Below, piece after piece: positions 3,319 through 49,188 of a stretch of 64,000 nucleotides of DNA. Location of the stretch: NCBI GenBank assembly GCA_934255135.1, contig CAKQMV010000008.1, positions 1 through 64,000 of the forward strand, in the 5' to 3' direction. Numbering within the stretch: position 1 is the stretch's first letter; each line of letters begins with the position of its first letter. Made by a program: the position numbers and the translations under genes. Source of the DNA: an uncultured Clostridia bacterium (GTDB lineage Bacteria > Bacillota > Clostridia > Peptostreptococcales > Anaerovoracaceae). Below the pieces are notes generated by a model, which worked only from the letters and a program-made list of their open reading frames with translations, was not told the origin of the DNA and ran no database searches.

Positions 3319-4089
3319 ATGAATAATGACAAGCTTGTTATAGGTGGACACGAATTTGATTCAAGATTCATTCTAGGTTCGGGTAAGTACTCGATGAAGC
3401 TGATTGAGTCAGCTATTAAGGATGCGGGCGCTGAGATTATTACGCTTGCAGTAAGAAGAGCTAACACTAAGGATGAGGAGAATATTCTCGACTACATTCC
3501 TGAGGGCGTTACACTTCTTCCTAACACATCAGGTGCTAGAAATGCAGACGAGGCAGTAAGAATTGCGCGTCTTGCAAGAGAGCTTGGATGCGGTGATTTT
3601 GTAAAGGTTGAGATTATGAGAGATGCGAAGTATCTTCTCCCTGACAACCAGGAGACTATCAAGGCAACAGAGATTCTCGCTAACGAGGGTTTTGTGGTAA
3701 TGCCTTACATGTATCCGGATCTTAACGCTGCAAGAGATATGGCTAATGCAGGTGCTGCTACAATTATGCCGCTTGCTTCACCAATCGGTTCAAACAAGGG
3801 TCTTGCAACTAAGGCGTTTATCCAGATTCTGATCGATGAGATTGATCTTCCAATCATCGTCGATGCCGGAATCGGCAAGCCTTCACAGGCGTGCGAAGCA
3901 ATGGAGATGGGTGCAGCTGCAATCATGGCTAACACTGCTCTTGCAACTGCAGGCGACCTTCCAATGATGGCTCAGGCATTTCGTCAGGCTATCGAGGCAG
4001 GACGTAAGGCTTATCTTTCAGGACTCGGTCGTGTGCTCACAAGAGGTGCTTCAGCATCAGATCCTCTTACAGGCTTCCTAAGAGACTAG
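3319..4089 (+). CDS. thiG: Thiazole synthase ThiG
   Basis: 256-aa protein with a ThiG-like N-terminus ([19 protein letters not shown]) and a TIM-barrel-like composition. Confidence 0.85.
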
Positions 4090-4099
4090 GAGGTGCAGG

Positions 4100-28100: not shown

Positions 28101-28457
28101 ATGAGCGTCATTATTGAATACGGCGAGGATGAGAAGCTGCAGCATGAGCACGAGCATGAACATAATCATGAACATAAACACAAGCACTCACACGAGCATT
28201 CGCCTGAGGAGAAGAAGAAGCAGCTTAACAGAATAGCGAGAGCAATCGGTCATCTTAAGGCTGTGCAGGGCATGATTGAACGCGATGAGGACTGCTCAGA
28301 TATTCTTATTCAGCTTTCTGCTGTAAGATCTGCGATTAACAACCTCGGCAAGGTTATCATCGACGAGCATCTCACACACTGCATCTATCATGCGATAGAA
28401 GAGGGCGATGATACGACGGTTAAGGAGTTCCAGGAAGCAATAAGGAAATTCATATAA
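28101..28457 (+). CDS. CsoR/RcnR-family metal-sensing transcriptional repressor with a His-rich N-terminal extension
   Basis: Helical C-terminal core with candidate ligands Cys (DEDCSD), His (IDEH) and Cys (THC), giving a C-H-C fingerprint. The N-terminal tail HEHEHEHNHEHKHKHSHEH has 9 His in 20 aa. Confidence 0.75.
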   Translation: MSVIIEYGEDEKLQHEHEHEHNHEHKHKHSHEHSPEEKKKQLNRIARAIGHLKAVQGMIERDEDCSDILIQLSAVRSAINNLGKVIIDEHLTHCIYHAIEEGDDTTVKEFQEAIRKFI

Positions 28458-28544: not shown

Positions 28545-28573
28545 TTGACTATAGAAGCATAAGAACCTACAAT
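28545..28573 (+). promoter_or_regulatory. Promoter (TTGACT, 17 nt, TACAAT) driving the nfl-hyp operon leader
   Basis: The sequence reads ttgactatagaagcataagaacctacaat. Confidence 0.5.
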
Positions 28574-28579
28574 ATAGGT

Positions 28580-28730
28580 ATCTGATACGAAACGTAACAC
28601 TTGAGTTGAAGATACGCCATGCAATATAGCTTAAAGGATGTCGGTGAACCGGCCAGAGGCTGCTTTACCAATCGTCCGCTACGATATGTAATACAAGAGG
28701 CAGTATCTTCAATTGCGAAGATACTGTTTT
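28580..28730 (+). ncRNA. Roughly 150-nt 5' leader ending in a strong intrinsic terminator. Candidate riboswitch or attenuator of unknown class.
   Basis: A structured region (ggatgtcggtgaaccggccagaggctgc…cgtccgc) is followed by cagtatcttc-aattgc-gaagatactg and a T6 run (28690-28730). This lies 50 nt before the TTG start of the first operon gene. Confidence 0.4.
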
Positions 28731-28778
28731 TTATTTTGTTATATAGAAGAGATTTTGTTATATAGAGGAGGTCATCCC

Positions 28779-29027
28779 TTGAACGGAAATAGAATTGCGA
28801 TAATCGGAATAATAATCGAGAAGAGCGAATCGGTTGAGAAGGTTAACGCTCTTTTGCACGACTACAGTGATGTAATTGTTGGAAGAATGGGTGTTCCCTG
28901 CAAGGATAGGGGAGTCAGCATTATAAGCGTGGCTCTCGATGCAACACAGGATTCAATCAATACGCTTGCGGGAAAGCTTGGTCGAATCGATGGTGTTTCA
29001 AGCAAGGCGCTATGCGTGTCGAAGTAG
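28779..29027 (+). CDS. TM1266-like small regulator (the family called putative iron-only hydrogenase system regulator, with an ACT/NikR-C-like fold)
   Basis: 82-aa ORF from TTG at 28779 with a perfect GGAGG 7 nt upstream (LNGNRIAIIGIIIEK…VIVGRMGVP…ISVALD). The six-frame ORF from 28713 has no RBS. Confidence 0.5.
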   Translation: MNGNRIAIIGIIIEKSESVEKVNALLHDYSDVIVGRMGVPCKDRGVSIISVALDATQDSINTLAGKLGRIDGVSSKALCVSK

Positions 29028-29039
29028 TGGAGGAGACAG

Positions 29040-29786
29040 ATGAGAAGGATAGCAATATACGGCAAGGGCGGTATAGGCAAGTCAACAATCTGCTCTAATC
29101 TTGCATCAGCAATGGCTGCGGACGGATTTAAGGTAATGCAGATCGGCTGCGACCCGAAGGCAGATTCAACAGCACTTCACAGGAAGGGGGTTAAGCTTCC
29201 TACAGTTCTTGACACAATGAGAGCGAAGGGAAGTGACTGGGGCCTTGATGAGGTTGTACATGTAAGCGATGATGGAGTTTTCTGCATCGAAGCTGGTGGA
29301 CCGGTTCCTGGACTTGGCTGTGCCGGCAGAGGAATCATCACAGCACTTGAGAAGCTTGAAGAGAAAGGCCTGTATGAGAAGTATGAGCCTGATGTGATTC
29401 TATACGATGTTCTCGGAGACGTTGTGTGCGGAGGCTTCAGTATGCCAATGAGATCAGGCTATGCAGATACTGTATATGTTGTGACCTCAGGTGAGAACAT
29501 GTCAATCTATGCGGCGGCTAACATTGCGATGGCTATAAGCAACTTCAGAGGTAGAGGATATGCGAAGCTTGGAGGTCTTATCCTTAACAGAAGAGATGTC
29601 AGAAACGAAGAGGATAAGGTAAGAGAGCTTGCAGCAGACCTTAAGACAGAGATTATTTCAGATATCCCAAGGTCATCTGATATCCAGGATGCGGAGGATG
29701 CCGGCGAGACTATCGTAAGACTGATGCCAGGCTCTGAGGTATCAGAGATTATTAAGAAGACTTCACGCAGAATCCTTTCTGAATAG
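29040..29786 (+). CDS. NifH/BchL/CfbC-family nitrogenase Fe-protein-like ATPase (copy 1)
   Basis: Walker A (GKGGIGKST), cluster cysteines (GLGCAGRG and VVCGGFSMPMR), and NifH-like length and pattern. Confidence 0.85.
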   Translation: MRRIAIYGKGGIGKSTICSNLASAMAADGFKVMQIGCDPKADSTALHRKGVKLPTVLDTMRAKGSDWGLDEVVHVSDDGVFCIEAGGPVPGLGCAGRGIITALEKLEEKGLYEKYEPDVILYDVLGDVVCGGFSMPMRSGYADTVYVVTSGENMSIYAAANIAMAISNFRGRGYAKLGGLILNRRDVRNEEDKVRELAADLKTEIISDIPRSSDIQDAEDAGETIVRLMPGSEVSEIIKKTSRRILSE

Positions 29787-29854
29787 CAGGATAACAGGAC
29801 AACAGAACAACAACCATTAAACATTAAACAGTTTAGTAACAGAGGCTAATCAGA

Positions 29855-32380
29855 ATGAAGGATATGATTAATACAGAATCATTAAGAATAGAAGATACGA
29901 CTTTCCCAGCTCCATGGAAGAGTCAGCTGGAGTTCAGCTCTCCAGCGAGAGGAACGTGGAACATCGTTCACACGGGAATGCTTATTCCGGAAAGCCACCA
30001 GATTTTTGTCTGCGCGAAGGGCTGCCTCAGAGGTGTAGTTCTTACGGCTGCCGAGATGGGCGAGATGGGAAGATACTCGGCACTTGAGATCAGAGAAGAG
30101 AATGTTCTTAACGGCGATATGGAGACAATGATGATAGACGGCGTTACAGATATCATCGAGAAGCTGCCGGTAAGACCTCGTGCTATAGAGCTTTTTATAA
30201 GTTGTCAGCATTTCTTCTTAGCATATGATCAGAAGCTTGTATTCAGAACTCTTAAAGAGAAGTTTCCGGATATAAGCTTTGTGGACTGCTACATGATTCC
30301 AACTCTTCGTAAGAGCGGAATTACACCGGATCAGAGGATGAGAGTTCAGATGTACAGAATGCTCGAGAAGGGACATATGTCACCTTCGAAGATAAACCAC
30401 ATCGGCTCGAATCACAGGATCAGAAGCAGCTCGGAGATATATGCTTTTGCCCGTAGAAACGGATACATTTTAAGATCCATTCACGACTGTGAGAGCTTCG
30501 ATGAGTACCTTGAGATGGCAGATGCGTGCTTTAACATCGTGACTGAGCCGCTTGCACTTAAGGCTGCAGAGGATATGGAAGCAAGACTCGGTATTCCTTA
30601 CGCATATGTGCCTAACGTGTTCAGATTCTCAGATATCGAGGAGGCTTACAGGAAGCTTTCTCTTGTAACCGGCGATCTTGCACCATACAGAATGCATGCT
30701 CAGGTTGAGATTGACAAGACTAAGAAACTTATCGGTGACGCTGAGATCGTGCTTGATTACACATTTACATTTAGAACGCTGAACCTGGCTAGATTCCTTG
30801 TCGAAAAGGGCTTCAACGTGACCGATATTTACATCGACAGCTTCCTGCCTGAAGATGAGGATGACTGGAAGCACCTTAAAGAGAACAGACCTGGCATAAT
30901 GATTCACCCGACGAACAGACCTTCGATGAGATTTGAGAAGGCCGGAAGAACTGATGCGATTGCACTCGGACAGAAGGCGGCTGAATTTGCGGGAACAGAT
31001 CATTTTGTGAATATTGCTGAAGGTGGCGGACTTTTCGGCTTTGCTGGAGTAGCGGAGCTTATGGAGCTTATGCGAGATGCATATATAAATGAGAAGGACA
31101 GACGAGAGGTCATTCAGAAGAAGGGCTTTAATCAGAGAAGTCTTCTAGATGAATCGGAGTGCCTATGCTCATCGGAGCCTCGAATCAGCAGTCTTACCTC
31201 AACAGGAATCAGAAGCTCTGCGAGCCTTATACCGACATATTCATCGGACGAATTCGGTGCATGCTCATCGCTTTATGAGCTCGGCGGAATGGTAGTAATG
31301 CACGATGCATCGGGTTGCAATTCAACTTATACAACTCATGACGAGCCAAGATGGTACGACCACCAGAGCATGATATATATATCGGCAATTTCTGAGATGG
31401 AAGCTATCATGGGAGACGACGATAAGCTGATCAAGGACATGACAGATGCGACAGAGGAGCTTCATCCAAGGTTTGCGGCAATCGTCGGAGCACCGATACC
31501 TTACATGACAGGAATCGACCTCGATGCGATTTCAGAAATCCTTAAATCAAAGCTTGAAATTCCGGTTTACGGCATCCACGCCAACGGAATGAATGATTAT
31601 ACGAAGGGAATAGAGATGGCCCTTGAGGCACTGACAGACGACCTCACGGAGGCACCGAAGGAAAATTCAGGCGCACACGACAGGGTCAGAGTCAACCTCC
31701 TTGGAATCACGCCACTTGATTACGCAAATCCATCGAATATGGATGAGCTTTATAAGTGGCTTTCCGAAAACGGCATGATCAAGCACTCAAGCTTCACGAT
31801 GGATTCATCAATCGAAGAGATCAAAGATGCTGCGAATGCTGATGTGAACCTGGTTCTGTCATCGGGAGGCCTTAAGACTGCGAAGAAGTTCAAGCGCCTT
31901 TACGGAATTCCATATGTGATAGGAGCACCTTTGGGCCGTGGATATGCGACGGAGCTTGCGAAGAATCTTAAAGACGCAGCTTCGGGCCAAAAACCTGGTT
32001 CAGCGACATGTGAGCGTCCCGCTTCGGCCGATGTTTTAATCATCGGAGAGGCTGTAACATCAGTTTCGCTCGCAAGAGCACTCGAGCTTGACCTTGGAAT
32101 AAGAGCAAGCGTTGCAGCAACAGTAAGCTGCAGCGATGAAATATTAAGAGCGGGCGACAGATTTACACCATGCGAGGATGCTGTGATAGAGGCTTTAGAT
32201 GAGCTTAAACCAGGAGCTGTAATTGCAGATCCTTTCTACATGGCAATCGTGAATGAGAAGACATTATTTATACCACTTCCTCACGAGGCCTTCTCAGGAA
32301 GAATTTTTGATAAGGAAGCACCGTGTCTGGTTAACACAGACCTTGATGCACTGCTTCAGGTAGGAGAGATAAATGCTTAA
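29855..32380 (+). CDS. Nitrogenase component-1-like oxidoreductase: a single-chain fusion of NifD/E-like (N-terminal half) and NifK/N-like (C-terminal half) domains
   Basis: 841 aa. The N-terminal half is homologous to ORF 33115-34413 ([15 protein letters not shown]…[13 protein letters not shown] vs [15 protein letters not shown]…[13 protein letters not shown]). The C-terminal half is homologous to ORF 34414-35466 ([18 protein letters not shown] vs CDAGGCTGNVCGFDEPRW). Confidence 0.7.
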
Positions 32381-33122
32381 ATTAGCGGTATATGGTAAAG
32401 GCGGAATAGGAAAATCAACAACAACGGCAAATCTTGCAGCGGCTTTTGCAAGCCTCGGCAAGAAGGTAATCCAGATAGGTTGCGATCCTAAGGCTGACTC
32501 GACAATGAACCTTCTTTCAGGAACTCCTGTTCAGTCAGTAATGGATTACATGAGAATTAACGATTGCGAGCCGGAGAGACTCGACGAGATTGTAAAGGAA
32601 GGCTACGGCGGAATCGTCTGCATCGAGACAGGCGGACCTACACCGGGACTTGGCTGCGCAGGAAGGGGAATCATAACAACATTCTCACTTCTTGAAGACC
32701 TCGAGCTCTTTGAGACTTACAAGCCTGACGTTGTGCTATACGACGTACTTGGAGACGTTGTGTGCGGAGGCTTTGCAGCACCTATAAGAGAGGGTTACGC
32801 AGAAGAGATTCTTATCGTAACATCAGGCGAGAAAATGGCGCTTTATGCGGCAAACAATATCGCCAAGGCTGTCGAGAATTTCGAGGACAGAGGATATGCG
32901 AGCGTTCGCGGAGTCGTTATGAACAGACGTAACGTTGAGAACGAGGAAGAGAAGGTCAAGGCCTGGGCTGATGAGGCGGGCTTCCCCGTTATCGCAGACA
33001 TTCCAAGAAGCAACGATATTATTAAATACGAAGATCAGGGCATGACAGTTATCGAAGGCGATAGAAGCCTTGAAGTGAGTCAATGCTACATAAAACTTGC
33101 AAAGAGGTTACTTAATGAATAA
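32373..33122 (+). CDS. NifH/BchL/CfbC-family nitrogenase Fe-protein-like ATPase (copy 2)
   Basis: [17 protein letters not shown] and [12 protein letters not shown] motifs. ATG overlaps the upstream stop (ATGCTTAA). Confidence 0.85.
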
Positions 33123-34413
33123 ACAGGATGCATTTTATATAACAGCAAGAGATCTTGCAGACGGAGGAATCGAAGGCGTTCCGTCAGAGCTTAAGTCGCA
33201 GGATCACCTAATCTACAGCTCACCTGCAGCGCTGAGCTTTAACTCACCTGGAGCACAGGGCTTCGGTGTCAAAAGAGCGGGTCTTGCAGTCCCAGGCTCC
33301 GTGATGCTGCTGGTTGCTCCGGCGTGCTGCGGACGTAACACAACTATGCTTGCAGAGCTCGGTTCATATGCTGACAGATTCTACTATCTTCTTCAGGATG
33401 ATACAGATATCATCACTGGAAGACACCTTAACAGAATCTCACAGGCAGTTAAGGATGTGGCAGATTTCCATGAAGAGTCGACTGGAACAAGACCTAACGT
33501 GGTAATGATCTGTATCACATGCGTAGACGCACTTCTCGGAACAGATATGGACAGAGTCTGCAGAAAGGCTTCAGAGTTTGCAGGACTTCCTGTTCTTCCA
33601 TGCTATATGTATGCGCTTGAAAGAGAGGGAAGAGTTCCTCCGATGACAGCGGTAAGAAGAACAGTGTACCAGCTCCTCGAGCCAAGGGAGAAGAAGAACA
33701 CAACAGTAAATCTTCTCGGACACTTCGCACCGCTTAACGATGATTCAGAAATCTACGAGCTTCTGAGAGGCATCGGAGTTAAGAAGATTAACGAGATATC
33801 AAGATGCGAGGATTTCGATGAGTATCTTGGAATGGCTGAGGCGAACTTCAGTATTATCCTGAACCCAGAATCAAGACTTGCTGCAGAGGATATTGCCAAA
33901 AGACTTGAGATTCCATCAGTCGAGCTTACAAGAATGTACAGAATCGACAAGATCAGAAAGCAGTATCAGCTCTTTGCGGGAGCTATCGGAGCTAAGATAG
34001 ATGACTCTAAGTTCTACGAGGAAGCGGCGGCGAAGGTAGAAGCTTTTGCCCGTGAGAACAAGGGTAAGAGGGTTGCAATCGGAGAGTGCATGAATGCGGA
34101 TTCATTCGAGCTTGCACTTGCAATGACTGAGTACGGACTTACAGTAACTGAGATTTACGGCACAGTTTCGGCTGAGAGAATGCCATATATCAAGATGCTT
34201 GCAGAACTTAGTCCTGAGACAAGAATCTACACCAATCTCGAGCCGTCAATGCTTTATTACGATTCAAGCGAGCTTCCATGCGACTTTACCATCGGAATTG
34301 ATGCCGGATATTATCATCCGGATGCGCCTAATGTTCCTTGGAATCTCGAGGTTCAGCCATGGGGCTACAACGGTCTTATCCGTCTGATTGAAGAAATAGA
34401 AGGAGTGCTCTAG
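33115..34413 (+). CDS. Nitrogenase component-1-like subunit (NifD/NifE/BchN-like)
   Basis: About 432 aa, paralogous to the N-terminal half of the 841-aa fusion. Start at MNKQDAFY (AGAGGT RBS) overlaps the nifH-like stop. Confidence 0.7.
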
Positions 34414-35466
34414 ATGAAGGGTTTACTAAGAGTTATGTCACCGTTTGCGCCTGACCAGTCAGGTGCGGCTTCGGTGTTTTACGATATGAATGCGATTACA
34501 GTCATATGCGATGCCGGCGGATGTACCGGAAACGTGTGTGGCTTCGATGAGCCGAGATGGCAGAAGAATGCGAGACCGATTTTCAGTGCGGGACTTCGTG
34601 ATATGGATGCGATTCTCGGAAGAGATGACAGACTGGTCGACAAGCTTAAGCTTGTTTCAGATAAGAGCGATGCGGATTTTGCTGCTATAATCGGAACTCC
34701 CGTGCCGGCAGTTATTGCAACTGACTTTAAGGCTCTCAAAAAAATGGCATCAAAGCGTTGCGGCATCCCAGTTGTAACGTGTGAGTGCACAGGAACTAAT
34801 CTCTACGACAAGGGTGAGGAGATGGCTTACCTCGAGCTTATGAAGACGTTCACAAGGGACATGGATGTGTGCGAGGGAAGAGTCGGAGTCCTCGGTGCGA
34901 CACCACTTAACTTCAGCGATATTGAAGCTGACAAGCTTATCAGAAAACACTATATGGAAGAAGGCTTTAGCGAGGTGCTTGTCTACGGCATGGGCGACGG
35001 ACTTGATTCGGTAAGAATGGCGGCGTCATGCGAGATGAATATCGTAGTTTCAGCTTCGGGACTTGCTCCGGCAAGATGGCTTAAGAAAAATTATGGGACA
35101 CCTTACAGAGTTGAGTGCCCTTTTGCAGGCGAGGCTGCAGCTAAGGCGGCAGGAGTGCTTAAGCATTCAAAGGTTCTTATCGTACATGAGCAGGTTGCTG
35201 CAAACAGCCTTAGAGATGCGATGGAGGACTGCGACGTTACAGTAGCGACCTTCTTCACACTCGATAAGAACATTGCAAATGAAGGCGATGTGCTGGTGGA
35301 GACAGAGGCTCAGTTTATAGAGCTTGTCGAAAATGGAGGCTACGATGCAGTTATCTGCGACGAGCTTCTTAGAAGAGCCGTAAAGGATGGAACCTACGGC
35401 ATTTGGATTAACCGAAGACATTTTGCAGTCTCCGGAAACCTGGAGGAAGGATTATGCGAACTCTAA
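34414..35466 (+). CDS. Nitrogenase component-1-like subunit (NifK/NifN/BchB-like)
   Basis: 350 aa, paralogous to the C-terminal half of the fusion. Cys-rich CDAGGCTGNVCG and VVTCECTG segments. Confidence 0.7.
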   Translation: MKGLLRVMSPFAPDQSGAASVFYDMNAITVICDAGGCTGNVCGFDEPRWQKNARPIFSAGLRDMDAILGRDDRLVDKLKLVSDKSDADFAAIIGTPVPAVIATDFKALKKMASKRCGIPVVTCECTGTNLYDKGEEMAYLELMKTFTRDMDVCEGRVGVLGATPLNFSDIEADKLIRKHYMEEGFSEVLVYGMGDGLDSVRMAASCEMNIVVSASGLAPARWLKKNYGTPYRVECPFAGEAAAKAAGVLKHSKVLIVHEQVAANSLRDAMEDCDVTVATFFTLDKNIANEGDVLVETEAQFIELVENGGYDAVICDELLRRAVKDGTYGIWINRRHFAVSGNLEEGLCEL

Positions 35467-37760
35467 GAATCTGCGTGTACGGAATAGTGCAGGGTGTAGG
35501 CTTCAGACCTTTTATTTCAAGACTTGCTGACAGACACGGAATACTCGGAAGCGTGGCGAACAGAGGTTCATATGTTGAGATTTTTGCCTGCGGAGAGGAC
35601 GATGAGCTCGATGCTTTTAAGGCTGGAATTGAAGCTGAGGCTCCACCAAGATCTGCAATTCTTAAAGTAACAAGCAGAGATATATCGGATAAGGCTCCTG
35701 CTTATCATGATTTTCAGATAATAGAGAGCACTGCGGAGAGAGGCGACATCTTCGTATCACCGGATATTGCGACATGTCCGGAATGCAGAAGAGAGCTTTT
35801 TGACAGTGGCAACAGAAGATATATGCATCCGTTCATTAACTGTACGGCATGCGGACCTAGACTTACGATTCTCGATGCGATGCCTTATGACAGGGAACGT
35901 ACGAGCATGAAGGAATTTCCAATGTGTCCGGAGTGCGAGTTTGAATATACTCATCCGGAGACGAGAAGATATGACGCGCAGCCCGTGTGCTGTAACGACT
36001 GCGGACCAGAGGTCTATATAGTCGGAACTGATATCAGAGGAAGAGATGCGATTACACGCGCAAGACAGGCCGTTATTGATGGTGAGATTGTTGCGATAAA
36101 AGGAATCGGAGGCTTTCACCTCTGCTGCGATGCGACTTCGGAGGAGGCTGTAGCAAGACTCAGAAGGCTTAAGAGAAGACCTGCTAAGCCATTTGCAATT
36201 ATGGCTAGAAGTCTTGAAGCGGTGGATAGAATCTGCAGCATTCCATCAGATTCTGTAAGAGAGCTTCTCGATGGACACAGCAAGCCGATTGTTCTTCTTG
36301 AGAGAATAAATGAAGGCGTGCTCGCACCATCGGTTGCACCTGATAATCCGAATGTTGGTGTTATGCTTCCATACGCACCGGTTCAGATGCTGATGTTTGA
36401 CTATAACGACGATCTTGACATCGGAACAGATTATTTTGTAATGACGAGCGGAAATGTATCTGGAGCACCGATCTGCAGAACAGATGAGGATGCAGTAGCT
36501 GAGCTTTCGGATTTCTGCGATGTGATATTAAGTCACAACAGAACGATAAGGCTTCGTGCGGACGACTCTGTTGTGGATGTATATAAGGATGAGCCTTACA
36601 TGATCAGACGTTCAAGAGGCTTCGCTCCTCTGCCTGTTATGACAGAAGAGGAGATTGAGGCATCAGTTCTCGCTGTTGGAGGAGAGCTTAAGAACACATT
36701 CTGCATCGGAAAGGATCAGCTGCTCTATGAATCATCGTTCGTCGGCGATATGGCTGATGTAAGAACGGTAAGAGCTCTGAATGAGTCAATAGACAGAATG
36801 GCAGAGCTTCTTGAGACAGACCCTGAGGTGGTGGTGTGCGACCTTCATCCTAAATACAATACGACCGAGGTTGCTGAAAGATATGCAGATAAGCATAATA
36901 TTCCTCTTATCAGACTTCAGCATCATTATGCTCACATTCTGTCGTGCATGGCGGAAAATGATTATACAGACGAGGTCATCGGCCTGTCTATGGACGGAAC
37001 AGGCTATGGAACAGACGGAACTATCTGGGGTGGCGAAGTTCTCCTGACAAGAAGAGACGGCTTCGAGAGACTTTCTCATATCGATCCGTTTATGCAGGCC
37101 GGCGGTGACCTCTCTGCAAAGGAGGGCTGGAGAATTGCAGCTTCTATGATAGGTTCGCTTTTCGGTGATGATGCAGAGGTAATCTCTGAGAATCTCGGAA
37201 TCTGCAGCGAATCAGAGTTTAAGCTTATTCGCACAATGACAGAGCGAGGAATTAACTCTGTGAAGTCGACGAGTGCGGGAAGACTCTTTGATGCAGTAAG
37301 TGCGATCCTTGGAGTAAGAAGAGCGTCAAGCTTCGAGGGTGAAGCGGCTACAACACTGCAGTTTAGAGCAATTGAAGCTAAGGGCGAATCAAAGTACCCA
37401 GGCCAAAACCGTGGTGACGGTTCGATAGCTTCCGGTGAGATTGTTAAATGGCTCGTAGGAGAGATGCTTCAGGCAACCGATAAAGATCAGACGCAGCGGG
37501 AGCTTGCGTGGGCCTTCCACGAAGCTTTTGCCCGTGAGATGGCGGACTCGGCACTTTACTGGTCGGAGAAGACAGGAATAAAGACAATAGCACTAAGCGG
37601 CGGTGTTATGCAGAATACTCTGCTGCTTGGAATGCTTGAAGAATACCTTGAGGAGAGAGAACTTAAGGTTATAAGACATCATATGATTCCACCGAATGAT
37701 GGCGGAATCGCGCTTGGGCAGGCGCTATATGCCCGTTGGGAGGTAGGAAAATGTGTGTAG
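35454..37760 (+). CDS. hypF: Carbamoyltransferase HypF ([NiFe]-hydrogenase maturation: acylphosphatase, 2 Zn fingers, YrdC and Kae1-like domains)
   Basis: 768 aa. Acylphosphatase start (ICVYGIVQGVGFRPF), two CxxC x18 CxxC fingers, YrdC-like and C-terminal Kae1-like regions. Confidence 0.85.
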   Translation: MRTLRICVYGIVQGVGFRPFISRLADRHGILGSVANRGSYVEIFACGEDDELDAFKAGIEAEAPPRSAILKVTSRDISDKAPAYHDFQIIESTAERGDIFVSPDIATCPECRRELFDSGNRRYMHPFINCTACGPRLTILDAMPYDRERTSMKEFPMCPECEFEYTHPETRRYDAQPVCCNDCGPEVYIVGTDIRGRDAITRARQAVIDGEIVAIKGIGGFHLCCDATSEEAVARLRRLKRRPAKPFAIMARSLEAVDRICSIPSDSVRELLDGHSKPIVLLERINEGVLAPSVAPDNPNVGVMLPYAPVQMLMFDYNDDLDIGTDYFVMTSGNVSGAPICRTDEDAVAELSDFCDVILSHNRTIRLRADDSVVDVYKDEPYMIRRSRGFAPLPVMTEEEIEASVLAVGGELKNTFCIGKDQLLYESSFVGDMADVRTVRALNESIDRMAELLETDPEVVVCDLHPKYNTTEVAERYADKHNIPLIRLQHHYAHILSCMAENDYTDEVIGLSMDGTGYGTDGTIWGGEVLLTRRDGFERLSHIDPFMQAGGDLSAKEGWRIAASMIGSLFGDDAEVISENLGICSESEFKLIRTMTERGINSVKSTSAGRLFDAVSAILGVRRASSFEGEAATTLQFRAIEAKGESKYPGQNRGDGSIASGEIVKWLVGEMLQATDKDQTQRELAWAFHEAFAREMADSALYWSEKTGIKTIALSGGVMQNTLLLGMLEEYLEERELKVIRHHMIPPNDGGIALGQALYARWEVGKCV

Positions 37761-37957
37761 GATTAGCGGCTAAGGTTGTTGGTATCAAGGATGGTGCGGC
37801 AGTTGTTGATGCATCAGGTGCAAGACGTGAGGTATCAGCTGAGATGATCGAGAATCTTGAACCGGGCGATTACGTAATGGTTCATGCAGGAATTGCAATT
37901 GCGAAGATTACTTCTGACGATACAGAAGAGACAGATGAACTGATGGAGATGCTCTAA
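37751..37957 (+). CDS. hypC: Hydrogenase assembly chaperone HypC/HupF
   Basis: Begins MCVGLAAKV (the essential Cys2). About 68 aa. ATG at 37751 with a GGGAGG RBS. Confidence 0.8.
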   Translation: MCVGLAAKVVGIKDGAAVVDASGARREVSAEMIENLEPGDYVMVHAGIAIAKITSDDTEETDELMEML

Positions 37958-39015
37958 TGGAAGAAAGAAAGCTTACAGCGAGAGAAATAATTGAGCAGTA
38001 CGACGGCCCGAAGATCAGAATTATGGAGGTGTGCGGAACGCATACACACGAAATCTTCAAGCTTGGAATCCGTAATCTGCTCCCGGAGAATATAGAACTT
38101 ATTTCGGGACCCGGATGTCCGGTGTGCGTAACTCCTTGCGGCTTTATCGACATGGCGTGCGAGCTTGCACTCGATAAGGGCTGTACAGTATGCACCTTCG
38201 GAGACCTTATAAGAGTTCCGGGAACCGAGATGAGCCTTGCAGATGCGAGAACTAAGGGTGCTGAGATTAAGATTGTGTATACAGCACTCGATGCGCTTGA
38301 TTTTGCAAGAAATAATCCTGATAAGGACGTTGTGTTCCTCTCTGTTGGATTTGAGACCACAACTCCTGCGGCCTGCCTTACTGTAAAGAAGGCTAAGGAA
38401 GAGGGAATCACCAACTACTCGATTCTTACAGCAAACAAGACTATGCCTAACGCGTACAACGCTCTTAAGGGAAGTGCAGATGCCTTTCTTTACCCTGGTC
38501 ACGTAAATGCGATCACAGGTGAAGAGGATTGCGAGAGACTCGCTTACGAAGAGGGAATCTCAGGCGTTATCGCAGGTTTTACGGCCAAAGAGCTTCTTAC
38601 TGCAATCGCGGTAATAATCCGCAGACTCGAGAAGGGTGAGCCGTTCTTCGTGAATTGCTATCCAAGAGTTGTAACAAGGGAAGGAAGCAAGCCTGCAAAG
38701 AAGCTTATAGACGAGACAATGGAGCTTACAGATTCAACATGGAGAGGACTTGGAGTTATCCCTAAATCAGGTCTTAAGCTCCGCGAGGAATACAAGGATT
38801 ACGATGCATCATACAAGTATGATGTGCCTTACACAGACGGCAAGCCTAATCCGGGATGCCGCTGCGGAGACGTGCTTCAGGGAAAGTGCAAGCCTTGTGA
38901 CTGTTCGCTTTTCGGCAAGATGTGCACACCACTTCACCCGGTTGGAGCTTGTATGGTAAGTAACGAAGGAAGCTGCTCAGCGTTCTATCAGTATGGAGGA
39001 ATAATCAATGGATAA
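37957..39015 (+). CDS. hypD: Hydrogenase formation protein HypD
   Basis: CGTHTHEI (CGxH), GPGCPVC and C-terminal Cys motifs. TAATG coupling to hypC. Confidence 0.85.
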   Translation: MEERKLTAREIIEQYDGPKIRIMEVCGTHTHEIFKLGIRNLLPENIELISGPGCPVCVTPCGFIDMACELALDKGCTVCTFGDLIRVPGTEMSLADARTKGAEIKIVYTALDALDFARNNPDKDVVFLSVGFETTTPAACLTVKKAKEEGITNYSILTANKTMPNAYNALKGSADAFLYPGHVNAITGEEDCERLAYEEGISGVIAGFTAKELLTAIAVIIRRLEKGEPFFVNCYPRVVTREGSKPAKKLIDETMELTDSTWRGLGVIPKSGLKLREEYKDYDASYKYDVPYTDGKPNPGCRCGDVLQGKCKPCDCSLFGKMCTPLHPVGACMVSNEGSCSAFYQYGGIING

Positions 39016-40012
39016 TGTAGTAAAGCTAGCTCATGGTGGCGGCGGAAAGCTGACATCTGAGCTTATCGAGAAGGTATTTAAGAAGCATTTTGCAAACGAG
39101 GCATTTACAGCAGACGATGCTGCAGTTTTAAACATCGGAAGTGGAAACATCGCAATGACTACAGACGGATTTATCGTATCACCGTTTGAGTTCCCTGGCG
39201 GAAACATAGGAAAGCTTTCAATCTGCGGAACTGTTAACGACCTTGCCTGCATGGGAGCAAAGCCTCTTTATATGACATGTGCTTTTGTCATCGAGGAGGG
39301 CTTCCCAATGGACAAGCTTGAGGAGATTGCTGCTCTCATGGAGAAGACTGCTGCAGAGGTTGGCGTTAAGATCGTTGCCGGTGACACTAAGGTTGCAGGT
39401 AAGGGTCAGGTAGACAATGTGTTTATCACAACTACAGGAATCGGCGTTCTGACTGAGGGTGTTAAGACTTCAGGTGCATTTGCAGAGAAGGGTGACAAAA
39501 TCATCGTTACTGGCGATGTTGGACGTCACGGCTGCACAATCCTTCTTGAAAGAGAGGACCTTGGAATCGAGGCTGATATCACGAGCGACTGTGCACCGTT
39601 GTGGAACACTGTAAAGTCTGTAATGGATGCGGCTCCTGACGTTCATGTAATCAGAGATGCTACAAGGGGCGGAGTTGGAACAGTTCTTTACGAAATCGCC
39701 GGCGAGAGTAACGTCGGAATCAGAATTGAGTCAGCAGATATTCCTGTTGATCCTGCTGTAGCAGGCGTATGCGGAATGCTCGGTCTTGATCCGCTCTACC
39801 TTGCCAACGAGGGAACAATGGTTATTATTGCACCTGCTTGTAGTGCTGATGCAGTGCTTACTGCACTTCATAATGATAAGTACGGAAAGAATGCAGCTAT
39901 TATTGGAGAGGTTACTGACGAGATGGCAGGAAGCGTAGTTCTCAGGACTGAGATCGGAACAGAGACAATGCTTCCACAGCCAGGCGGAGAGCTTCTTCCA
40001 AGAATCTGCTAA
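39008..40012 (+). CDS. hypE: Hydrogenase maturation factor HypE (AIR-synthase-like carbamoyl dehydratase)
   Basis: PurM-like fold motifs and the diagnostic C-terminal …PRIC. Confidence 0.85.
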   Translation: MDNVVKLAHGGGGKLTSELIEKVFKKHFANEAFTADDAAVLNIGSGNIAMTTDGFIVSPFEFPGGNIGKLSICGTVNDLACMGAKPLYMTCAFVIEEGFPMDKLEEIAALMEKTAAEVGVKIVAGDTKVAGKGQVDNVFITTTGIGVLTEGVKTSGAFAEKGDKIIVTGDVGRHGCTILLEREDLGIEADITSDCAPLWNTVKSVMDAAPDVHVIRDATRGGVGTVLYEIAGESNVGIRIESADIPVDPAVAGVCGMLGLDPLYLANEGTMVIIAPACSADAVLTALHNDKYGKNAAIIGEVTDEMAGSVVLRTEIGTETMLPQPGGELLPRIC

Positions 40013-40036
40013 TTCCCAGATAATGGAGTAATAGAT

Positions 40037-41092
40037 ATGAATAATCTTGAGAAGCTAAAAGAATTAGTGCTCAAGCTTAAAGACGAAAAGAGACTCGATA
40101 AGGATGAGTGGATACTCCTTATCGAGTCACAAAGTCCTGAGCTTATGGAATTTGTCTCTGAACACGCAAGAAATGTAAGAGAAGCTCACTACGGCAAGGA
40201 TGTCTATGTGAGAGGTCTTATCGAGATAAGCAATTATTGTAAGAATGACTGCTACTACTGCGGAATCAGAAAGAGCAATCTTAATGCGCACAGGTACAGA
40301 CTCTCTAAGGAGACGATACTTGACTGCTGCCGTGAGGGCCATGAGCTTGGCTACAGGACTTTTGTCATGCAGGGCGGCGAGGACATGCACTATAGCGATG
40401 ACCTCGTCTGCGATATAGTTTCATCCATCAAGGCAGAATTTCCAGACTCTGCAGTGACTCTTTCAATAGGAGAGAGGTCACGCGAGAGCTATGCAAGATT
40501 TAAGAAAGCAGGTGCTGACAGATATCTTCTTAGACATGAGACTGCATGCGAGGCTCATTATAGAAAACTTCACCCAGATGAGCTTACTCTTGCGAACAGG
40601 AAAAGATGCCTGTATGATTTAAAGGAACTCGGCTTCCAGGTGGGAGCCGGTTTTATGGTGGGCGCGCCATACCAGACCGTAGATAATCTTGCAGAGGATA
40701 TGATTTTCCTTAAGGAGCTTAGTCCTCATATGGTCGGCATCGGCCCGTTTATTCCACACCACGACACACCGTTTAAAGATATGCCGGCGGGAAGTGCTGA
40801 GCAGACGCTTTATTTTCTCAGCCTTACAAGACTGATGCTTCCATCAGTTCTGCTTCCGGCGACAACTGCACTTGGTACAATCTCTGACAATGGAAGAGAG
40901 CTTGGAATGCTTGCCGGTGCAAACGTTGTTATGCCCAACCTTTCGCCAGCGGAGGTGAGAGGCGATTATCTTCTTTATGATAACAAACTGTGCACCGGAG
41001 ATGAGGCTGCGCAGAATCTTGCTAATCTTAATAAGAGAATGGAGTCGGTCGGCTTTAATATTTCAATGACTCGTGGTGACTGGAAAGAATAA
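40037..41092 (+). CDS. hydE: [FeFe]-hydrogenase H-cluster radical SAM maturase HydE-like
   Basis: 351 aa. CKNDCYYCGIR matches the HydE-type CxxxCxYCGxR motif rather than BioB CPEDCxYC. BioB/HydE-like length. Confidence 0.65.
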   Translation: MNNLEKLKELVLKLKDEKRLDKDEWILLIESQSPELMEFVSEHARNVREAHYGKDVYVRGLIEISNYCKNDCYYCGIRKSNLNAHRYRLSKETILDCCREGHELGYRTFVMQGGEDMHYSDDLVCDIVSSIKAEFPDSAVTLSIGERSRESYARFKKAGADRYLLRHETACEAHYRKLHPDELTLANRKRCLYDLKELGFQVGAGFMVGAPYQTVDNLAEDMIFLKELSPHMVGIGPFIPHHDTPFKDMPAGSAEQTLYFLSLTRLMLPSVLLPATTALGTISDNGRELGMLAGANVVMPNLSPAEVRGDYLLYDNKLCTGDEAAQNLANLNKRMESVGFNISMTRGDWKE

Positions 41093-41116
41093 AACTTTGA
41101 AACAGAAGGGAATACA

Positions 41117-42856
41117 ATGAAATTCAAGAGAAATAATCTTTCTAAAATGCTAAGCTACTATAAGCCTTACATGGGACTGTTCCTTGCTGATATGTTCTTT
41201 GCGACAATCAGCTCCGCGATAGCACTGTGTATTCCGCTTGTAGTAAGATACGTTACTTCGACGCTCGTTTACATGAAGCCGGAGGTTATTCTTGCACAGA
41301 CTTTAAAGCTTGCTATTCTGATGCTTGTGCTTGTGCTTGTTGATTTCGGTTCAAGATACTTTATCGGTAACTACGGACATGTGATGGGTGCGAAGATAGA
41401 ATATAACATGCGAGCAGAGATCTTCGACCATATGCAGAAGCTGTCATTCAGGTTCTACGATGATGCCAAGGTCGGACAGCTGATGAGCAGAGTCACAACA
41501 GACCTGTTTGATATCACTGAGCTTCTCCACCACGGTCCTGAGAACATTCTTCTTTCACTTCTCAAGATCTGCGGAGCTCTTGCAATCCTGTTTAGCATCA
41601 ATCCGAAGCTTACATTAGCGGCATTTATTATTCTGCCGTTTATGTTCATATATGCATACGTTCTTAACAAGAAGATGAGAAGGGCATTTAAGCTTAACAG
41701 AGTTAAGATCGCCGAAATCAACGGACAGATCGAGGACAACTTCTCAGGAATCAGAGTGGTAAAGTCATTTGCCAATGAGGATGTTGAGAATGGCAAGTTC
41801 AAGGTAGGAAATGATGGCTTCCTGTCATCAAAGAAGAACAATTACAGATATATGGGCCTTTTCCAGGCCGGAATTCAGGCGTTCAATACGCTGATTACAG
41901 TGTGCGTTATCATAATCGGCTGCGTTCTTATTGCAAGGGACAACCTTAATGTCAGCGATTTCGTAACGTTCCTTCTTTATATTAACGTATTCACTGATCC
42001 TATCAAGACTCTTGTAGATTTTACAGAGATGTTTCAGAACGGATACACAGGCTTCGAAAGATTCAGAGAGATTATGGATATCGAGCCAGATATTCAGGAC
42101 GATCCTGATGCAGAGGAGCTTGGAGATGTAGACGGTAACATAGTATTTGATGATGTATCGTTCTCATATAACGATAATTCTGGCGAGGTTCTTTCGAACG
42201 TAAATCTCGATATCAGACCGGGACAGTATATCGCACTTGTCGGTTCATCCGGTGCAGGTAAGACTACGCTTTGTTCACTTATTCCTCGTTTCTACGATGT
42301 GGATTCAGGAAGAATTCTGATTGACGGACACGACATCAGACATCTCAAGCAGAGAAGCCTCCGTAACAAGATCGGAATCGTTCAGCAGGACGTGTATCTT
42401 TTTGCCGGAACAATCTATGATAACATCGCATACGGTAAGCCGGGTGCGACAAGAGAAGAGGTCATCGAGGCTGCAAAGAATGCGAATGCGCATGACTTTA
42501 TAATGTCACTTGAGGACGGCTACGATACAGATATCGGACAGAGAGGAATCAAGCTCTCAGGAGGTCAGAAGCAGAGACTTTCGATTGCTAGAGTATTCCT
42601 TAAGAATCCACCTATCCTTATCTTTGATGAGGCAACATCGGCACTCGATAACGAGAGCGAGAGAATCGTTCAGGAGTCACTTGAGAAGCTCGCGGCTAAT
42701 AGAACAACTATCGTAATCGCCCACAGACTTTCAACTATCAGAAATGCTGAGAAGATTCTCGTTCTCACAGAGGATGGAATCGCAGAAAGCGGTACGCACG
42801 AGGAACTCCTTCACAAGGGCGGCGTGTACGAGCAGCTTTACAGAGGAACTATCTAA
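41117..42856 (+). CDS. ABC transporter ATP-binding/permease protein (type I exporter, MsbA/LmrA-like half-transporter)
   Basis: Six TM helices followed by an NBD with GSSGAGKTT, LSGGQKQRLSIAR and ILIFDEATSALD. Confidence 0.8.
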   Translation: MKFKRNNLSKMLSYYKPYMGLFLADMFFATISSAIALCIPLVVRYVTSTLVYMKPEVILAQTLKLAILMLVLVLVDFGSRYFIGNYGHVMGAKIEYNMRAEIFDHMQKLSFRFYDDAKVGQLMSRVTTDLFDITELLHHGPENILLSLLKICGALAILFSINPKLTLAAFIILPFMFIYAYVLNKKMRRAFKLNRVKIAEINGQIEDNFSGIRVVKSFANEDVENGKFKVGNDGFLSSKKNNYRYMGLFQAGIQAFNTLITVCVIIIGCVLIARDNLNVSDFVTFLLYINVFTDPIKTLVDFTEMFQNGYTGFERFREIMDIEPDIQDDPDAEELGDVDGNIVFDDVSFSYNDNSGEVLSNVNLDIRPGQYIALVGSSGAGKTTLCSLIPRFYDVDSGRILIDGHDIRHLKQRSLRNKIGIVQQDVYLFAGTIYDNIAYGKPGATREEVIEAAKNANAHDFIMSLEDGYDTDIGQRGIKLSGGQKQRLSIARVFLKNPPILIFDEATSALDNESERIVQESLEKLAANRTTIVIAHRLSTIRNAEKILVLTEDGIAESGTHEELLHKGGVYEQLYRGTI

Positions 42857-44685: not shown

Positions 44686-44769
44686 ACATAAATATTAATA
44701 AAATCTTAATAATTCAGATACTTTTTTCTTAATGCACCTGTGAAGGATAATAAGCTCGGGAGGTATGAT

Positions 44770-45459
44770 ATGGCAACAATTCTAATATGTGACGACGAGA
44801 AGGATATCGTAAGCGCGCTTGATATCTACTTGTCATCAGAGGGCTACAGCATCCTGAGAGCTTACAACGGAGCGGAAGCACTCGAGAAGATAGAGAATAA
44901 TAATGTGGATCTCATTCTTTTGGACGTAATGATGCCTGTACTCGACGGAATACAGACAATCATGAAGATTCGTGAGAACCACGACATGCCCGTGATTTTC
45001 CTTTCAGCTAAGTCTGAGGATACGGACAAAATTCTCGGTCTCAATCTCGGTGCTGATGATTACGTAACGAAGCCTTTCAACATGGTGGAGGTTGCCGCAA
45101 GGGTGAGATCAAACTTAAGACGTATCAGAATGACCGCACCAAAGCAACTCGAGGATACACTTGTTATCGGTGGAATTTCTTTAAATGACAGATCAAAGCA
45201 GGTGACTGTCGATGGAGACTATGTCGAGCTCACACCTAAGGAGTACGAGATTCTGAAGCTCCTTATGAAGAACCCTGATAGAGTTTTCAGCAACAAAGAA
45301 ATCTACAAGGCAGTGTGGGATGAGAATCCTAACGGCTACGAGGGAACTGTATCAGTCCATATCAGACACCTAAGAGAGAAAATTGAAGTAAACCCGGCCG
45401 ACCCGCGCTATATTCAGGCTGTGTGGGGCCGCGGCTACAGACTCGAGAGAGGAAGGTAA
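44770..45459 (+). CDS. OmpR-family two-component response regulator
   Basis: Receiver domain (ILICDDE…LLDVMMP) and winged-helix C-terminus (VWGRGYRL). ATG at 44770 with a GGAGGT RBS. Confidence 0.85.
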   Translation: MATILICDDEKDIVSALDIYLSSEGYSILRAYNGAEALEKIENNNVDLILLDVMMPVLDGIQTIMKIRENHDMPVIFLSAKSEDTDKILGLNLGADDYVTKPFNMVEVAARVRSNLRRIRMTAPKQLEDTLVIGGISLNDRSKQVTVDGDYVELTPKEYEILKLLMKNPDRVFSNKEIYKAVWDENPNGYEGTVSVHIRHLREKIEVNPADPRYIQAVWGRGYRLERGR

Positions 45460-45462
45460 GAT

Positions 45463-47400: not shown

Positions 47401-47414
47401 TATTAATATGTATA

Positions 47415-47447
47415 GAAAAAAGTCAGGCATCGCAGCCTGACTTTTCT
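47415..47447. terminator. Bidirectional intrinsic terminator between convergent histidine kinase and hydrogenase genes
   Basis: Hairpin aaaaaa-gtcaggc-atcgca-gcctgac-ttttctc. Confidence 0.7.
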
Positions 47448-47479
47448 CGTAAGACGAAATTTATTAATACTAATCTATG

Positions 47480-48937: not shown

Positions 48938-49188
48938 TAGTGATCTCCTTTTAGTCAAAATAAAAAGCACGGCCCAATAAATGTGTCGCACTTGGTATTC
49001 ATATTGTTGTGTAATGTAACGATTTTGCGTAAAATTATAGCGTTTTAGCAAAATATGCAAAACACAAGGATTGATAAAATTTAAACAATCCTCGACGATT
49101 ATAACACAGCATATTTTATAAGTAAACACCTTAAGCCTTACATAATCATTGTGATATAATATTTAAGTTAAAGGAGATGTTAATTACA

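Follow-up and report, generated by a model that had tools for sequence, protein, structure and literature searches.

In the pyr operon of Bacillus, the gene for the regulator PyrR comes first, and hairpins are located both in the 5' leader and between cistrons. Such a hairpin is an anti-antiterminator: its 3' strand overlaps an antiterminator that competes with a terminator, and binding of PyrR leads to termination. The 64,000-nucleotide stretch of DNA analysed here (the window; contig CAKQMV010000008.1 from an uncultured Clostridia bacterium of the Anaerovoracaceae) contains a leader of comparable layout, which precedes the gene for an 82-residue TM1266-like protein and a set of nif-like, hyp and hydE-like genes. 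As in the pyr operon, the regulator-like gene is the first one, hairpins of one kind occur in 5' leaders and between cistrons, and the 3' strand of the hairpin overlaps an antiterminator that competes with a terminator; we infer that binding would again lead to termination. The parts themselves are different. Neither the sequence nor the structure of the PyrR binding site is matched (with the Rfam model RF00515, one family member, L024, scores 23 bits where the gathering score is 54, and the window has no match), and the TM1266-like protein, with its ACT/NikR-C fold, is not a phosphoribosyltransferase homologue and is a putative RNA-binding protein.

The hut and trp operons of Bacillus subtilis offer a second comparison. 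Like the protein proposed to act here, HutP and TRAP are small, oligomeric and ligand-activated, and set the choice between terminator and antiterminator; in hut, the regulator reading frame is located directly upstream of an intercistronic terminator, similar to the 10 loci in which a TM1266 gene is followed by our motif and then by hydF, hydG or hydE. However, the targets of HutP and TRAP are single-stranded (U/G)AG triplet repeats instead of a folded hairpin, the protein folds are unrelated, and HutP antiterminates, while binding here would terminate. In OFF riboswitches (guanine, SAM-I, TPP), the closing helix shares nucleotides with the antiterminator, internal-loop nucleotides are conserved and the helices covary, all of which is also seen here, but most aptamers are far larger and more complex than our sensor, which has no match in Rfam 15 and is linked to a putative regulator protein. 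With tandem sheared G·A modules and K-turns, to which L7Ae-family proteins bind, our hairpin shares a conserved core of 5'-GA-3'/5'-GA-3' internal loops with an invariant G and A. The closest characterised relative of TM1266 is the C-terminal metal-binding domain of NikR. NikR also contains an N-terminal ribbon-helix-helix and acts on DNA operators, whereas TM1266 has nothing but the sensor domain and apparently acts on RNA in the present case. The switch logic of the locus is classical; the sensor motif is new and the effector probably so.

For about 20 years, the only annotation of the TM1266 family has been "putative iron-only hydrogenase system regulator". A full-text literature search, with the supplementary tables of large surveys outside its reach, revealed no RNA element tied to hydEFG or TM1266, no functional study of TM1266 and no regulatory mechanism for hydE, hydF or hydG. 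An earlier note on this DNA, made from the sequence alone, had suggested that the leader might represent a new class of regulator. This idea has gained substance: matches in Rfam and in the literature are lacking, yet the motif belongs to a covarying family of about 50 instances, apparently a cis-regulatory RNA family of [FeFe]-hydrogenase maturation operons that has so far escaped description.

The explanation we prefer, to which we give somewhat less than an even chance as a whole, is an attenuator with a GA-hairpin as sensor, locked by the TM1266-like protein in PyrR-like negative feedback. Transcription would start at about position 28580 from a sigma-70-type promoter, and the first 38 or so nucleotides of the RNA can be folded into a three-helix rod. 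By default, the 3' strand of this rod and the 6 nucleotides behind it (28606–28618) would pair with the 5' arm of the terminator into a long-range antiterminator, allowing read-through into the operon of TM1266, nif-like, hyp and hydE-like genes. A factor clamping the 5' hairpin would sequester the antiterminator strand, upon which the terminator (28701–28726, plus U6) would form and transcription would stop. If the locking factor is the TM1266-like protein itself, the operon would be under negative feedback. The bound state would thus be the off state. The features are as follows, L081 and L086 being representatives of the two closest lineages.

28545–28550, forward strand: −35 hexamer TTGACT, from a consensus scan; AATTGACT is identical in the window, L081 and L086, while the spacer varies.
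28568–28573, forward strand: −10 hexamer TACAAT, from a consensus scan; TACAAT or TAAAAT in the orthologs.
28578–28615, forward strand: sensor hairpin (a double tandem-GA rod) and putative anti-antiterminator, from conservation, covariance-model score and family covariation.
28581–28583 with 28610–28612, extended by 28578–28580 with 28613–28615, forward strand: helix P0.
28584–28585 (GA) opposite 28608–28609 (GA), forward strand: loop 1.
28586–28588 with 28605–28607, forward strand: helix P1, containing a U28586·U28607 mismatch that is an A-U pair in L081 and L086.
28589–28590 (GA) opposite 28603–28604 (GA), forward strand: loop 2.
28591–28595 with 28599–28602, forward strand: helix P2, closed by the loop AAC.
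28606–28618, forward strand: predicted 5' strand of the antiterminator, UUGAAGAUACGCC, overlapping the 3' strands of P1 and P0.
28620–28690, forward strand: variable spacer domain with a hairpin, enclosed by the antiterminator helix; 38–42% identity, and the place where single-nucleotide polymorphisms (SNPs) of the species fall.
28699–28712, forward strand: predicted 3' strand of the antiterminator and at the same time 5' arm of the terminator, GGCAGUAUCUUCAA.
28695–28732, forward strand: intrinsic terminator, from a scan; 16 pairs including an A-U extension.
28767–28781, forward strand: Shine-Dalgarno sequence GGAGG (28767–28771) and TTG start codon (28779–28781) of the first gene.
28779–29027, forward strand: TM1266-like gene, 82 residues, ACT/NikR-C fold (PF21699, E 1e-31; TIGR03959, 113 bits).

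The promoter is present exactly as the earlier note described it, with TTGACT and TACAAT 17 nucleotides (nt) apart (28545–28573). The promoter is called because both hexamers are kept in L081 and L086 though the spacer diverges, the hexamer scan alone being non-significant. Transcription is expected to start 7 nt past the −10 hexamer, at about 28580, which gives a leader of about 153 nt up to the end of the T-run, in agreement with the 150 nt or so proposed before. The core stem of the terminator contains 10 base pairs, CAGTATCTTC (28701–28710) pairing with GAAGATACTG (28717–28726) around the loop AATTGC (28711–28716), and the U-tract, T6 (28727–28732), follows directly 3' of it. The range 28690–28730 previously given for the terminator is about right. 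The TTG start, previously put some 50 nt past it, is located at 28779, which is 47 nt from the T-run. Compared with shuffled sequences, the full leader is more stably folded (z = −4.25), with z = −1.76 when the terminator is left out; the excess folding stability comes mainly from the terminator.

The sensor has the topology P0-[GA/GA]-P1-[GA/GA]-P2, that is, three short helices separated by two symmetric 2×2 GA/GA internal loops, and the block in the window reads UCU-GA-UAC-GA-AACGU[AAC]ACUU-GA-GUU-GA-AGA. On its own, the hairpin is marginally stable, with calculated energies of −2 to −8 kcal/mol across the family; in unaided RNAfold predictions the rod is the minimum free energy structure for L019, L002, L081 and L086, and nearly so for L018. 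Its 3' strand (28605–28615) overlaps the 5' strand of the antiterminator (28606–28618), and antiterminator and terminator compete for nucleotides 28699–28712. The antiterminator helix (28606–28618 with 28699–28712) contains 13 base pairs and one bulge, with a predicted duplex energy of −15.1 kcal/mol, among the strongest of 40 scored. When each lineage's leader is cut before the 3' arm of the terminator, mimicking the nascent transcript, the long-range antiterminator is the minimum free energy structure in all three lineages, while the full-length leaders fold into the terminator. The pairing partners differ by lineage: UACGCC/GGCAG in the window, UCUGCC/GGUAG in L081 and GCUACC/GGUA in L086. 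In most family members, the position of the spacer domain is occupied by just 17–50 nt.

The alternative pairings for which the leader had been credited in general terms are thereby made specific, as 28606–28618 with 28699–28712. A promoter on the same strand, a hairpin with a U-tract and a mutually exclusive antiterminator, the elements of an intrinsic-terminator attenuator, are all present, and the conserved promoter, block and terminator, together with the terminator/antiterminator alternative, recur in every lineage. This supports the reading of the leader as a real transcription attenuator, as far as sequence and predicted folding can tell. A leader-peptide mechanism was ruled out: the only candidate considered, a 48-residue reading frame (28619–28765), is not conserved and has no start codon in L081.

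Orthologous loci were found by a homologue search with the 82-residue TM1266-like protein, followed by contig look-ups. Two more lineages share the synteny, L081–L085 (71% protein identity) and L086–L089 (68%), with the common order csoR-like gene, gap, TM1266, NifH-like gene and NifDK-like fusion; in L081–L085, csoR and the gap are separated by an additional ydjY-like gene. Alignment of the intergenic regions of the three lineages reveals a near-invariant block straight after the −10 hexamer, GGTATCTGA(A/T)AC(G/A)AAACGTAA(C/T)ACTTGAGTTGAAGA. This 38-nt block at the 5' end of the transcript has a pairwise identity of 89.5%, compared with 66–73% for the TM1266 coding sequence (39–46% at third codon positions) and 38–42% for the remainder of the leader, the middle of which shows no sequence similarity. 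The terminator hairpin and T-run are retained as a structure in L081, L086 and L002, with a changed sequence. Within the species of the window, SNPs are located in the middle hairpin and the flanks, with none in the block or the terminator stem. The comparative alignment, which the earlier note had proposed as a check, thus finds promoter, sensor block and terminator kept at the orthologous loci. In the window clade, the stem and loop of P2 (28591–28602) are also nearly invariant, though P2 varies freely in the wider family; this could point to additional contacts or to a second role, for instance as a site acting at the DNA level around the transcription start.

Plain sequence comparison does not reach further, the primary sequence being too diverged, and the family was recognised only when the leaders were inspected and a covariance model was then applied. 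BLASTN of the leader against 80 TM1266 loci returned only a terminator-like stretch in L002, a fuzzy search with a 34-nt block (up to 9 mismatches) matched the three close lineages only, and a metagenome scan with a 22-nt core pattern gave one match, in the window's own species. Comparison by eye with consensus sequences gave no convincing match to cre, Rex, Fur or NikR operators. The palindrome GTATCT-N26-AGATAC is not kept in L086.

The wider family was sampled as 80 genome loci encoding TM1266 homologues with 51–64% identity. A strong hairpin with a T-run is located upstream of the TM1266 gene in 26 of these, at 12–145 nt, mostly 28–50 nt. In several of the 26, the upstream gene is divergent; these hairpins are thus attenuators rather than 3' ends left by the genes before them. 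Inspection of the leaders revealed, straight after a good promoter, the pattern CCUGA-[3-5 nt]-RA-[small hairpin]-GA-[3-5 nt complementary]-RA-AGG. A first hand-written regular expression was too rigid, recovering 5 of the 80 loci, and a covariance model (CM) was used instead. This model, R1, was built from a seed of 20 sequences and searched blind over the window and 83 loci (671 kb; 1.3 Mb counting both strands). It produced 47 non-redundant matches at E<0.02, every one on the strand of the TM1266 gene. The motif is found 104–363 nt upstream of the TM1266 gene in 38 loci and just downstream of it in 10; it adjoins the gene in 48–50 of the 80 other loci, in Clostridia.

The helices of the motif covary. 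In the 20-sequence MAFFT seed, 78% of the pair cells are paired, compared with 25–49% in slid registers, and in the CM alignment of the 47 sequences the values are 84.5% and 27–46%. Compensatory double changes affect 93 cells, against 29 ± 5 in shuffles (0 of 500). Pair 12–59, for example, is A-U in 35 sequences and G-C in 12, and is never unpaired; G·U pairs occur in the alignment. Positions C2, U3, G4, A5 and A67 are invariant. The motif is followed by a terminator (hairpin and T-run) after 17–77 nt in 40 of the 47 instances, and tail and terminator arm evolve together: cognate duplexes average −10.2 kcal/mol, non-cognate ones −7.0 kcal/mol (40 members; permutation p<1e-4). In the upstream class, a promoter scoring at least 9/12, with its −10 hexamer ending 7–13 nt before the motif, is present in 23 of 36 cases, in the downstream class in 3 of 11. 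Some operons contain multiple copies (2506–2544, 2661–2695 and 4135–4172 in L072; 3880–3914 and 5293–5329 in L057). The extra copies are arranged in tandem upstream or lie between hydE and hydG, resembling the multiple attenuators of the pyr operon.

Because the matches are strand-specific and G·U pairs take part in the covariation, the motif is expected to function at the RNA level and not as a DNA operator. According to the opposite view, the conserved 38-bp block would be an operator at the transcription start, for instance for a CsoR-family repressor, and the hairpin would be the csoR operon terminator or an unregulated pause. We regard this as highly improbable. The block does begin at about −3 relative to the predicted start, so that some of its conserved bases may be untranscribed, the three closest lineages share the csoR synteny, csoR lacks a terminator of its own before the promoter, and the P2 loop is invariant in the window clade though variable family-wide. 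However, G·U pairs would be meaningless in duplex DNA, every CM match is strand-specific, and changes at the 3' end of the block go together with changes in the terminator arm. A csoR-like gene is present in none of the 80 other loci, and in L081 a gene separates csoR from the leader. Known CsoR/RcnR operators contain a G/C-tract inverted repeat, which the block lacks (no operator model was scored). Finally, the terminator is located downstream of the conserved promoter, not upstream of it. The attenuator is thus more than the csoR terminator, the simpler explanation that had been raised beforehand: it follows a conserved promoter, and in L081 the hairpin stays with TM1266 despite the intervening gene; CsoR itself, previously put forward as a possible effector, is unlikely, given its absence from the other motif and TM1266 loci.

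The csoR-family gene (28101–28457, forward strand) encodes a protein with a His-rich amino-terminus, HEHEHEHNHEHKHKHSHEH, and keeps its upstream position in the three closest lineages only. Since csoR lacks a terminator ahead of the leader promoter, its read-through transcripts may also end at the attenuator.

R1 assigns 25.6 bits to the window element, the sole significant CM match in the 64 kb, although its scores of 25–32 bits for the window clade concern sequences that sit in its seed. A leave-out model, R2, was built from 39 matches, none of them from the window clade. The architecture of the family, YCU-GA-P1(3-5 bp)-RA-P2 hairpin-NA-P1'-RA-AGR with an invariant CUGA, is that of the window block, and a subclass with a P1 of 3 bp is present in the main family too. 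When the family is described strictly (CUGA, a perfect 3–5-bp P1, RA, P2 hairpin, NA, RA, AG), the 80 loci (1.16 Mb) contain 30 matches, all but one of which (29) adjoin a TM1266 gene. In both L081 and L086, exactly one strict match is present, at the block, where about 0.03 would be expected; a Markov model predicts 0.12 per 64 kb on both strands. At the P1 site, the window differs from them by a single substitution. The motif of the window, on the strand of the TM1266 gene, starts 7 nt past the −10 hexamer and 198 nt ahead of the start codon of that gene.

A bridge is provided by L002, from Ca. Crickella merdequi, also of the Anaerovoracaceae, which has an operon of the window type (NifH-like protein 69% and NifDK fusion 58% identical). 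Its motif is fully canonical, AUCU-GA-GAUC-GA-AAU[AUCGC]AUU-GA-GGUU-GA-AGAU, with P1 and P2 sequences unlike those of the window clade, and its tail is in the style of the window, GAAGAUGCC being perfectly complementary to the terminator arm GGCAUCUUC. Architecture, context and the bridging L002 give good support, and the CM score weak support, to the window element being a divergent member of the family; this membership is the least secure part of our account.

As for the effector, the TM1266 protein has a ligand-binding ACT/NikR-C fold without a DNA-binding domain and contains the invariant basic residues R5, R36, K66 and K76; a structure of the family has been solved (2NZC). Already named in the earlier note as a possible effector, it is favoured as the locking factor, either by itself or with a small ligand bound by its ACT-like domain, because gene and motif are tightly linked in two arrangements, and its fold is in keeping with such a role. 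A broader proposal, which we make tentatively and with more doubt than conviction, is that the TM1266 family is a new class of RNA-binding attenuation proteins that recognise the double tandem-G·A hairpin and gate hydEFG (here the nif-like/hyp operon) in response to a ligand. Codon 41 (28899–28901) encodes Cys in the window and L081, while 76 of 77 homologues have Tyr, in the motif GRMG(I/V)PY. The Cys41 variant was considered as a partner of the RNA variant, which it does not track. L086 and L002 keep the Tyr.

A number of results weigh against locking by TM1266 or against parts of the RNA model. In 30 of the 80 TM1266 loci, no motif is detectable beside the gene, and the invariant residues are retained in the proteins of these loci; comparison of the proteins from motif-positive and motif-negative loci revealed no distinguishing residues, and no co-variation between protein and RNA was found. 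The fold is generic, without a recognised RNA-binding motif, and every locus was picked through TM1266 homology, which makes the linkage counts conditional on TM1266. The seed sequences and structure were initially chosen by eye, and CM alignments are biased to the structure of the model. RNAalifold predicted zero pairs for the MAFFT seed alignment, because the helices are too short and some rows were mis-registered; the structure was supplied by hand and then tested. With its default filters, R2 leaves the elements of the window, L081 and L086 unreported. With the filters off, the window element obtains 11.2 bits (E 0.056), weak but the top match in 5 kb, L081 10.2 bits (top) and L086 7.6 bits (not top). 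These low scores are explained by the P1 of 3 bp, the replacement of the near-invariant C6-G65 pair by A-U (U·U in the window) and the tail GAAGA instead of GAAAGG. The window fits the strict descriptor with one mismatch, U28586·U28607, and about one match of that quality is expected per 64 kb. Promoter-like hexamers are not enriched around the leader, with 3 in 2 kb compared with 4.4 expected from shuffles.

Known riboswitches were looked for with the Rfam covariance models, a scan that the earlier note had recommended. Its failure to recognise a familiar riboswitch is borne out: Rfam 15 has no match to the window leader even at E≤10, and T-box, THI, B12 and other known riboswitches are ruled out. 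The best score in the leader, 19.4 bits against a gathering score of 55.8, involves the terminator portion only. In 20 loci with strong motif copies, Rfam recognised only a tRNA, and the leaders of L018 and L024 gave nothing near threshold at E≤10.

A riboswitch of a new kind is a different matter. The attenuator would be the same, with the hairpin as an aptamer for a metal or a small molecule, for example a divalent ion such as Fe2+, a precursor of the H-cluster or an amino acid that HydG or HydE uses as substrate, and with TM1266 as mere co-regulated cargo. This we consider unlikely, though deserving of serious attention. The layout is that of a classic OFF switch, in which the closing helix of a 5' sensor overlaps the antiterminator and the terminator follows, and the internal-loop nucleotides C2, U3, G4, A5 and A67 do not vary. 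Tandem G·A pairs are known metal-binding sites in RNA and could serve as such here. The cargo is concerned with metallocofactor biosynthesis, including, in L018, an ABC permease of the Fe-siderophore/B12 type, and the TM1266 loci without the motif indicate that protein and RNA are not strictly coupled. Conversely, the element is tiny, about 33 nt with three helices of 3–4 bp, and has no conserved junction or pseudoknot. Its conserved positions all belong to the two symmetric GA loops, a pattern met more typically in sites that bind proteins. The repeated intercistronic placement right after a small regulator-like reading frame would be left as a coincidence, and it would make no sense for Fe2+ to switch off the hydEFG genes, which demand iron.

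The hairpin might also be bound by another protein encoded elsewhere in the genome, for instance of the L7Ae type (YbxF/YlxQ) or a global regulator, with TM1266 acting in a different place, such as a metabolite-binding partner of a maturase. Tandem sheared G·A modules form the recognition core for L7Ae-family proteins, which would suit the sensor loops; two family members have a weak, sub-threshold resemblance to the L10 leader, and TM1266 lacks a recognised RNA-binding motif. However, the sensor is not a K-turn, as was concluded when that motif was tried: all 47 instances have symmetric 2×2 loops flanked by Watson-Crick pairs, with P0 on the far side and without a 3-nt bulge, and the would-be 2b position is a G in 29 of the 47. 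The L10-leader scores (17.5–19.8 bits against a gathering score of 44) are at noise level, and the same-strand linkage to TM1266 in about 50 loci would be left unexplained. We judge this alternative improbable.

The leader and its roughly 50 relatives provide a concrete candidate target for an orphan regulator, a 33–38-nt hairpin coupled to a terminator. If TM1266 does bind the hairpin, a widespread family would obtain a function and a new protein-RNA pair would take its place beside TRAP, PyrR and HutP; it would be the first described regulation of [FeFe]-hydrogenase maturation, and a new fold for RNA-mediated attenuation. If the RNA binds a ligand directly, it would define a riboswitch class that is new, unusually small and linked to the assembly of metallocofactors. 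In both cases, the leader is a compact switch of gut and rumen Clostridia with which hydrogenase maturation could be monitored or controlled. The leader also places the nif-like/hypFCDE/hydE-like operon of the window in an H-cluster maturation regulon, a clue to the function of that operon.

The genes behind the TM1266-like gene are these.

29040–42856, forward strand: remainder of the operon cargo, from tight spacing and shared strand.

They encode two NifH-like proteins, a NifDK-like fusion, NifD/E- and NifK/N-like proteins, HypF, HypC, HypD, HypE, a HydE-like radical SAM protein and an ABC exporter. Judged by their tight spacing and common strand, the genes from 28779 to 42856 probably form one operon. 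The NifDK-like fusion contains 841 residues, HypC is encoded at 37736–37957 and the HydE-like protein is 60–67% identical to bona fide HydE elsewhere. The operon thus joins nitrogenase-like proteins with the Fe(CN)2CO machinery of the [NiFe] type and a maturase of the [FeFe] type; possibly, it specifies a novel metallocofactor pathway.

Elsewhere in the family, the genes next to the motif were identified with NCBIfam. Where the motif comes first, it is followed by TM1266, HydE and HydG in L012 and L057. In L018, a metagenome-assembled genome of the Oscillospiraceae (3892–5250), it is followed by TM1266 and a FecCD/BtuC-type ABC permease, with no hyd genes there, which hints at metal or cofactor uptake in the same regulon. 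In the intercistronic layouts, TM1266 and then the motif precede HydF (L003, L004, L020), HydG (L068, L075) or HydE (L066); the motif starts 2–45 nt after the TM1266 stop codon in the loci examined, mostly without a promoter of its own. By tblastn, HydE-like proteins are encoded in 59 of the 80 loci and NifH-like proteins in 10, while CsoR-like, HypF and HypD genes are found in none of the 80. NifH-like and NifD/K-like genes recur in operons of other Clostridia with TM1266, hydF and radical SAM genes (L003, L004, L013, L020, L029, L038, L042, L002, L022 and L090–L093), which suggests that the nif-like clade is functionally linked to H-cluster-type maturation in general.

Just past the operon, genes for an OmpR-type response regulator and a HisKA kinase (44740–47400, forward strand) are located beside a gene resembling the large subunit of [FeFe]-hydrogenase (47480–49129, reverse strand); no copy of the motif was found near these genes (44740–49129). 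Between the terminator and the Shine-Dalgarno sequence (28733–28766), a 15-nt direct repeat, ATTTTGTTATATAGA, is present at 28733–28747 and 28752–28766 on the forward strand. It is part of a 19-nt tandem duplication that is missing from the conspecific contigs L097 and L098 and therefore represents an indel polymorphism in the 5' untranslated region. The only Rfam family above threshold in the 64-kb window is a TPP riboswitch (RF00059), at 2292–2399 on the forward strand, with 63.2 bits against a gathering score of 54.3.

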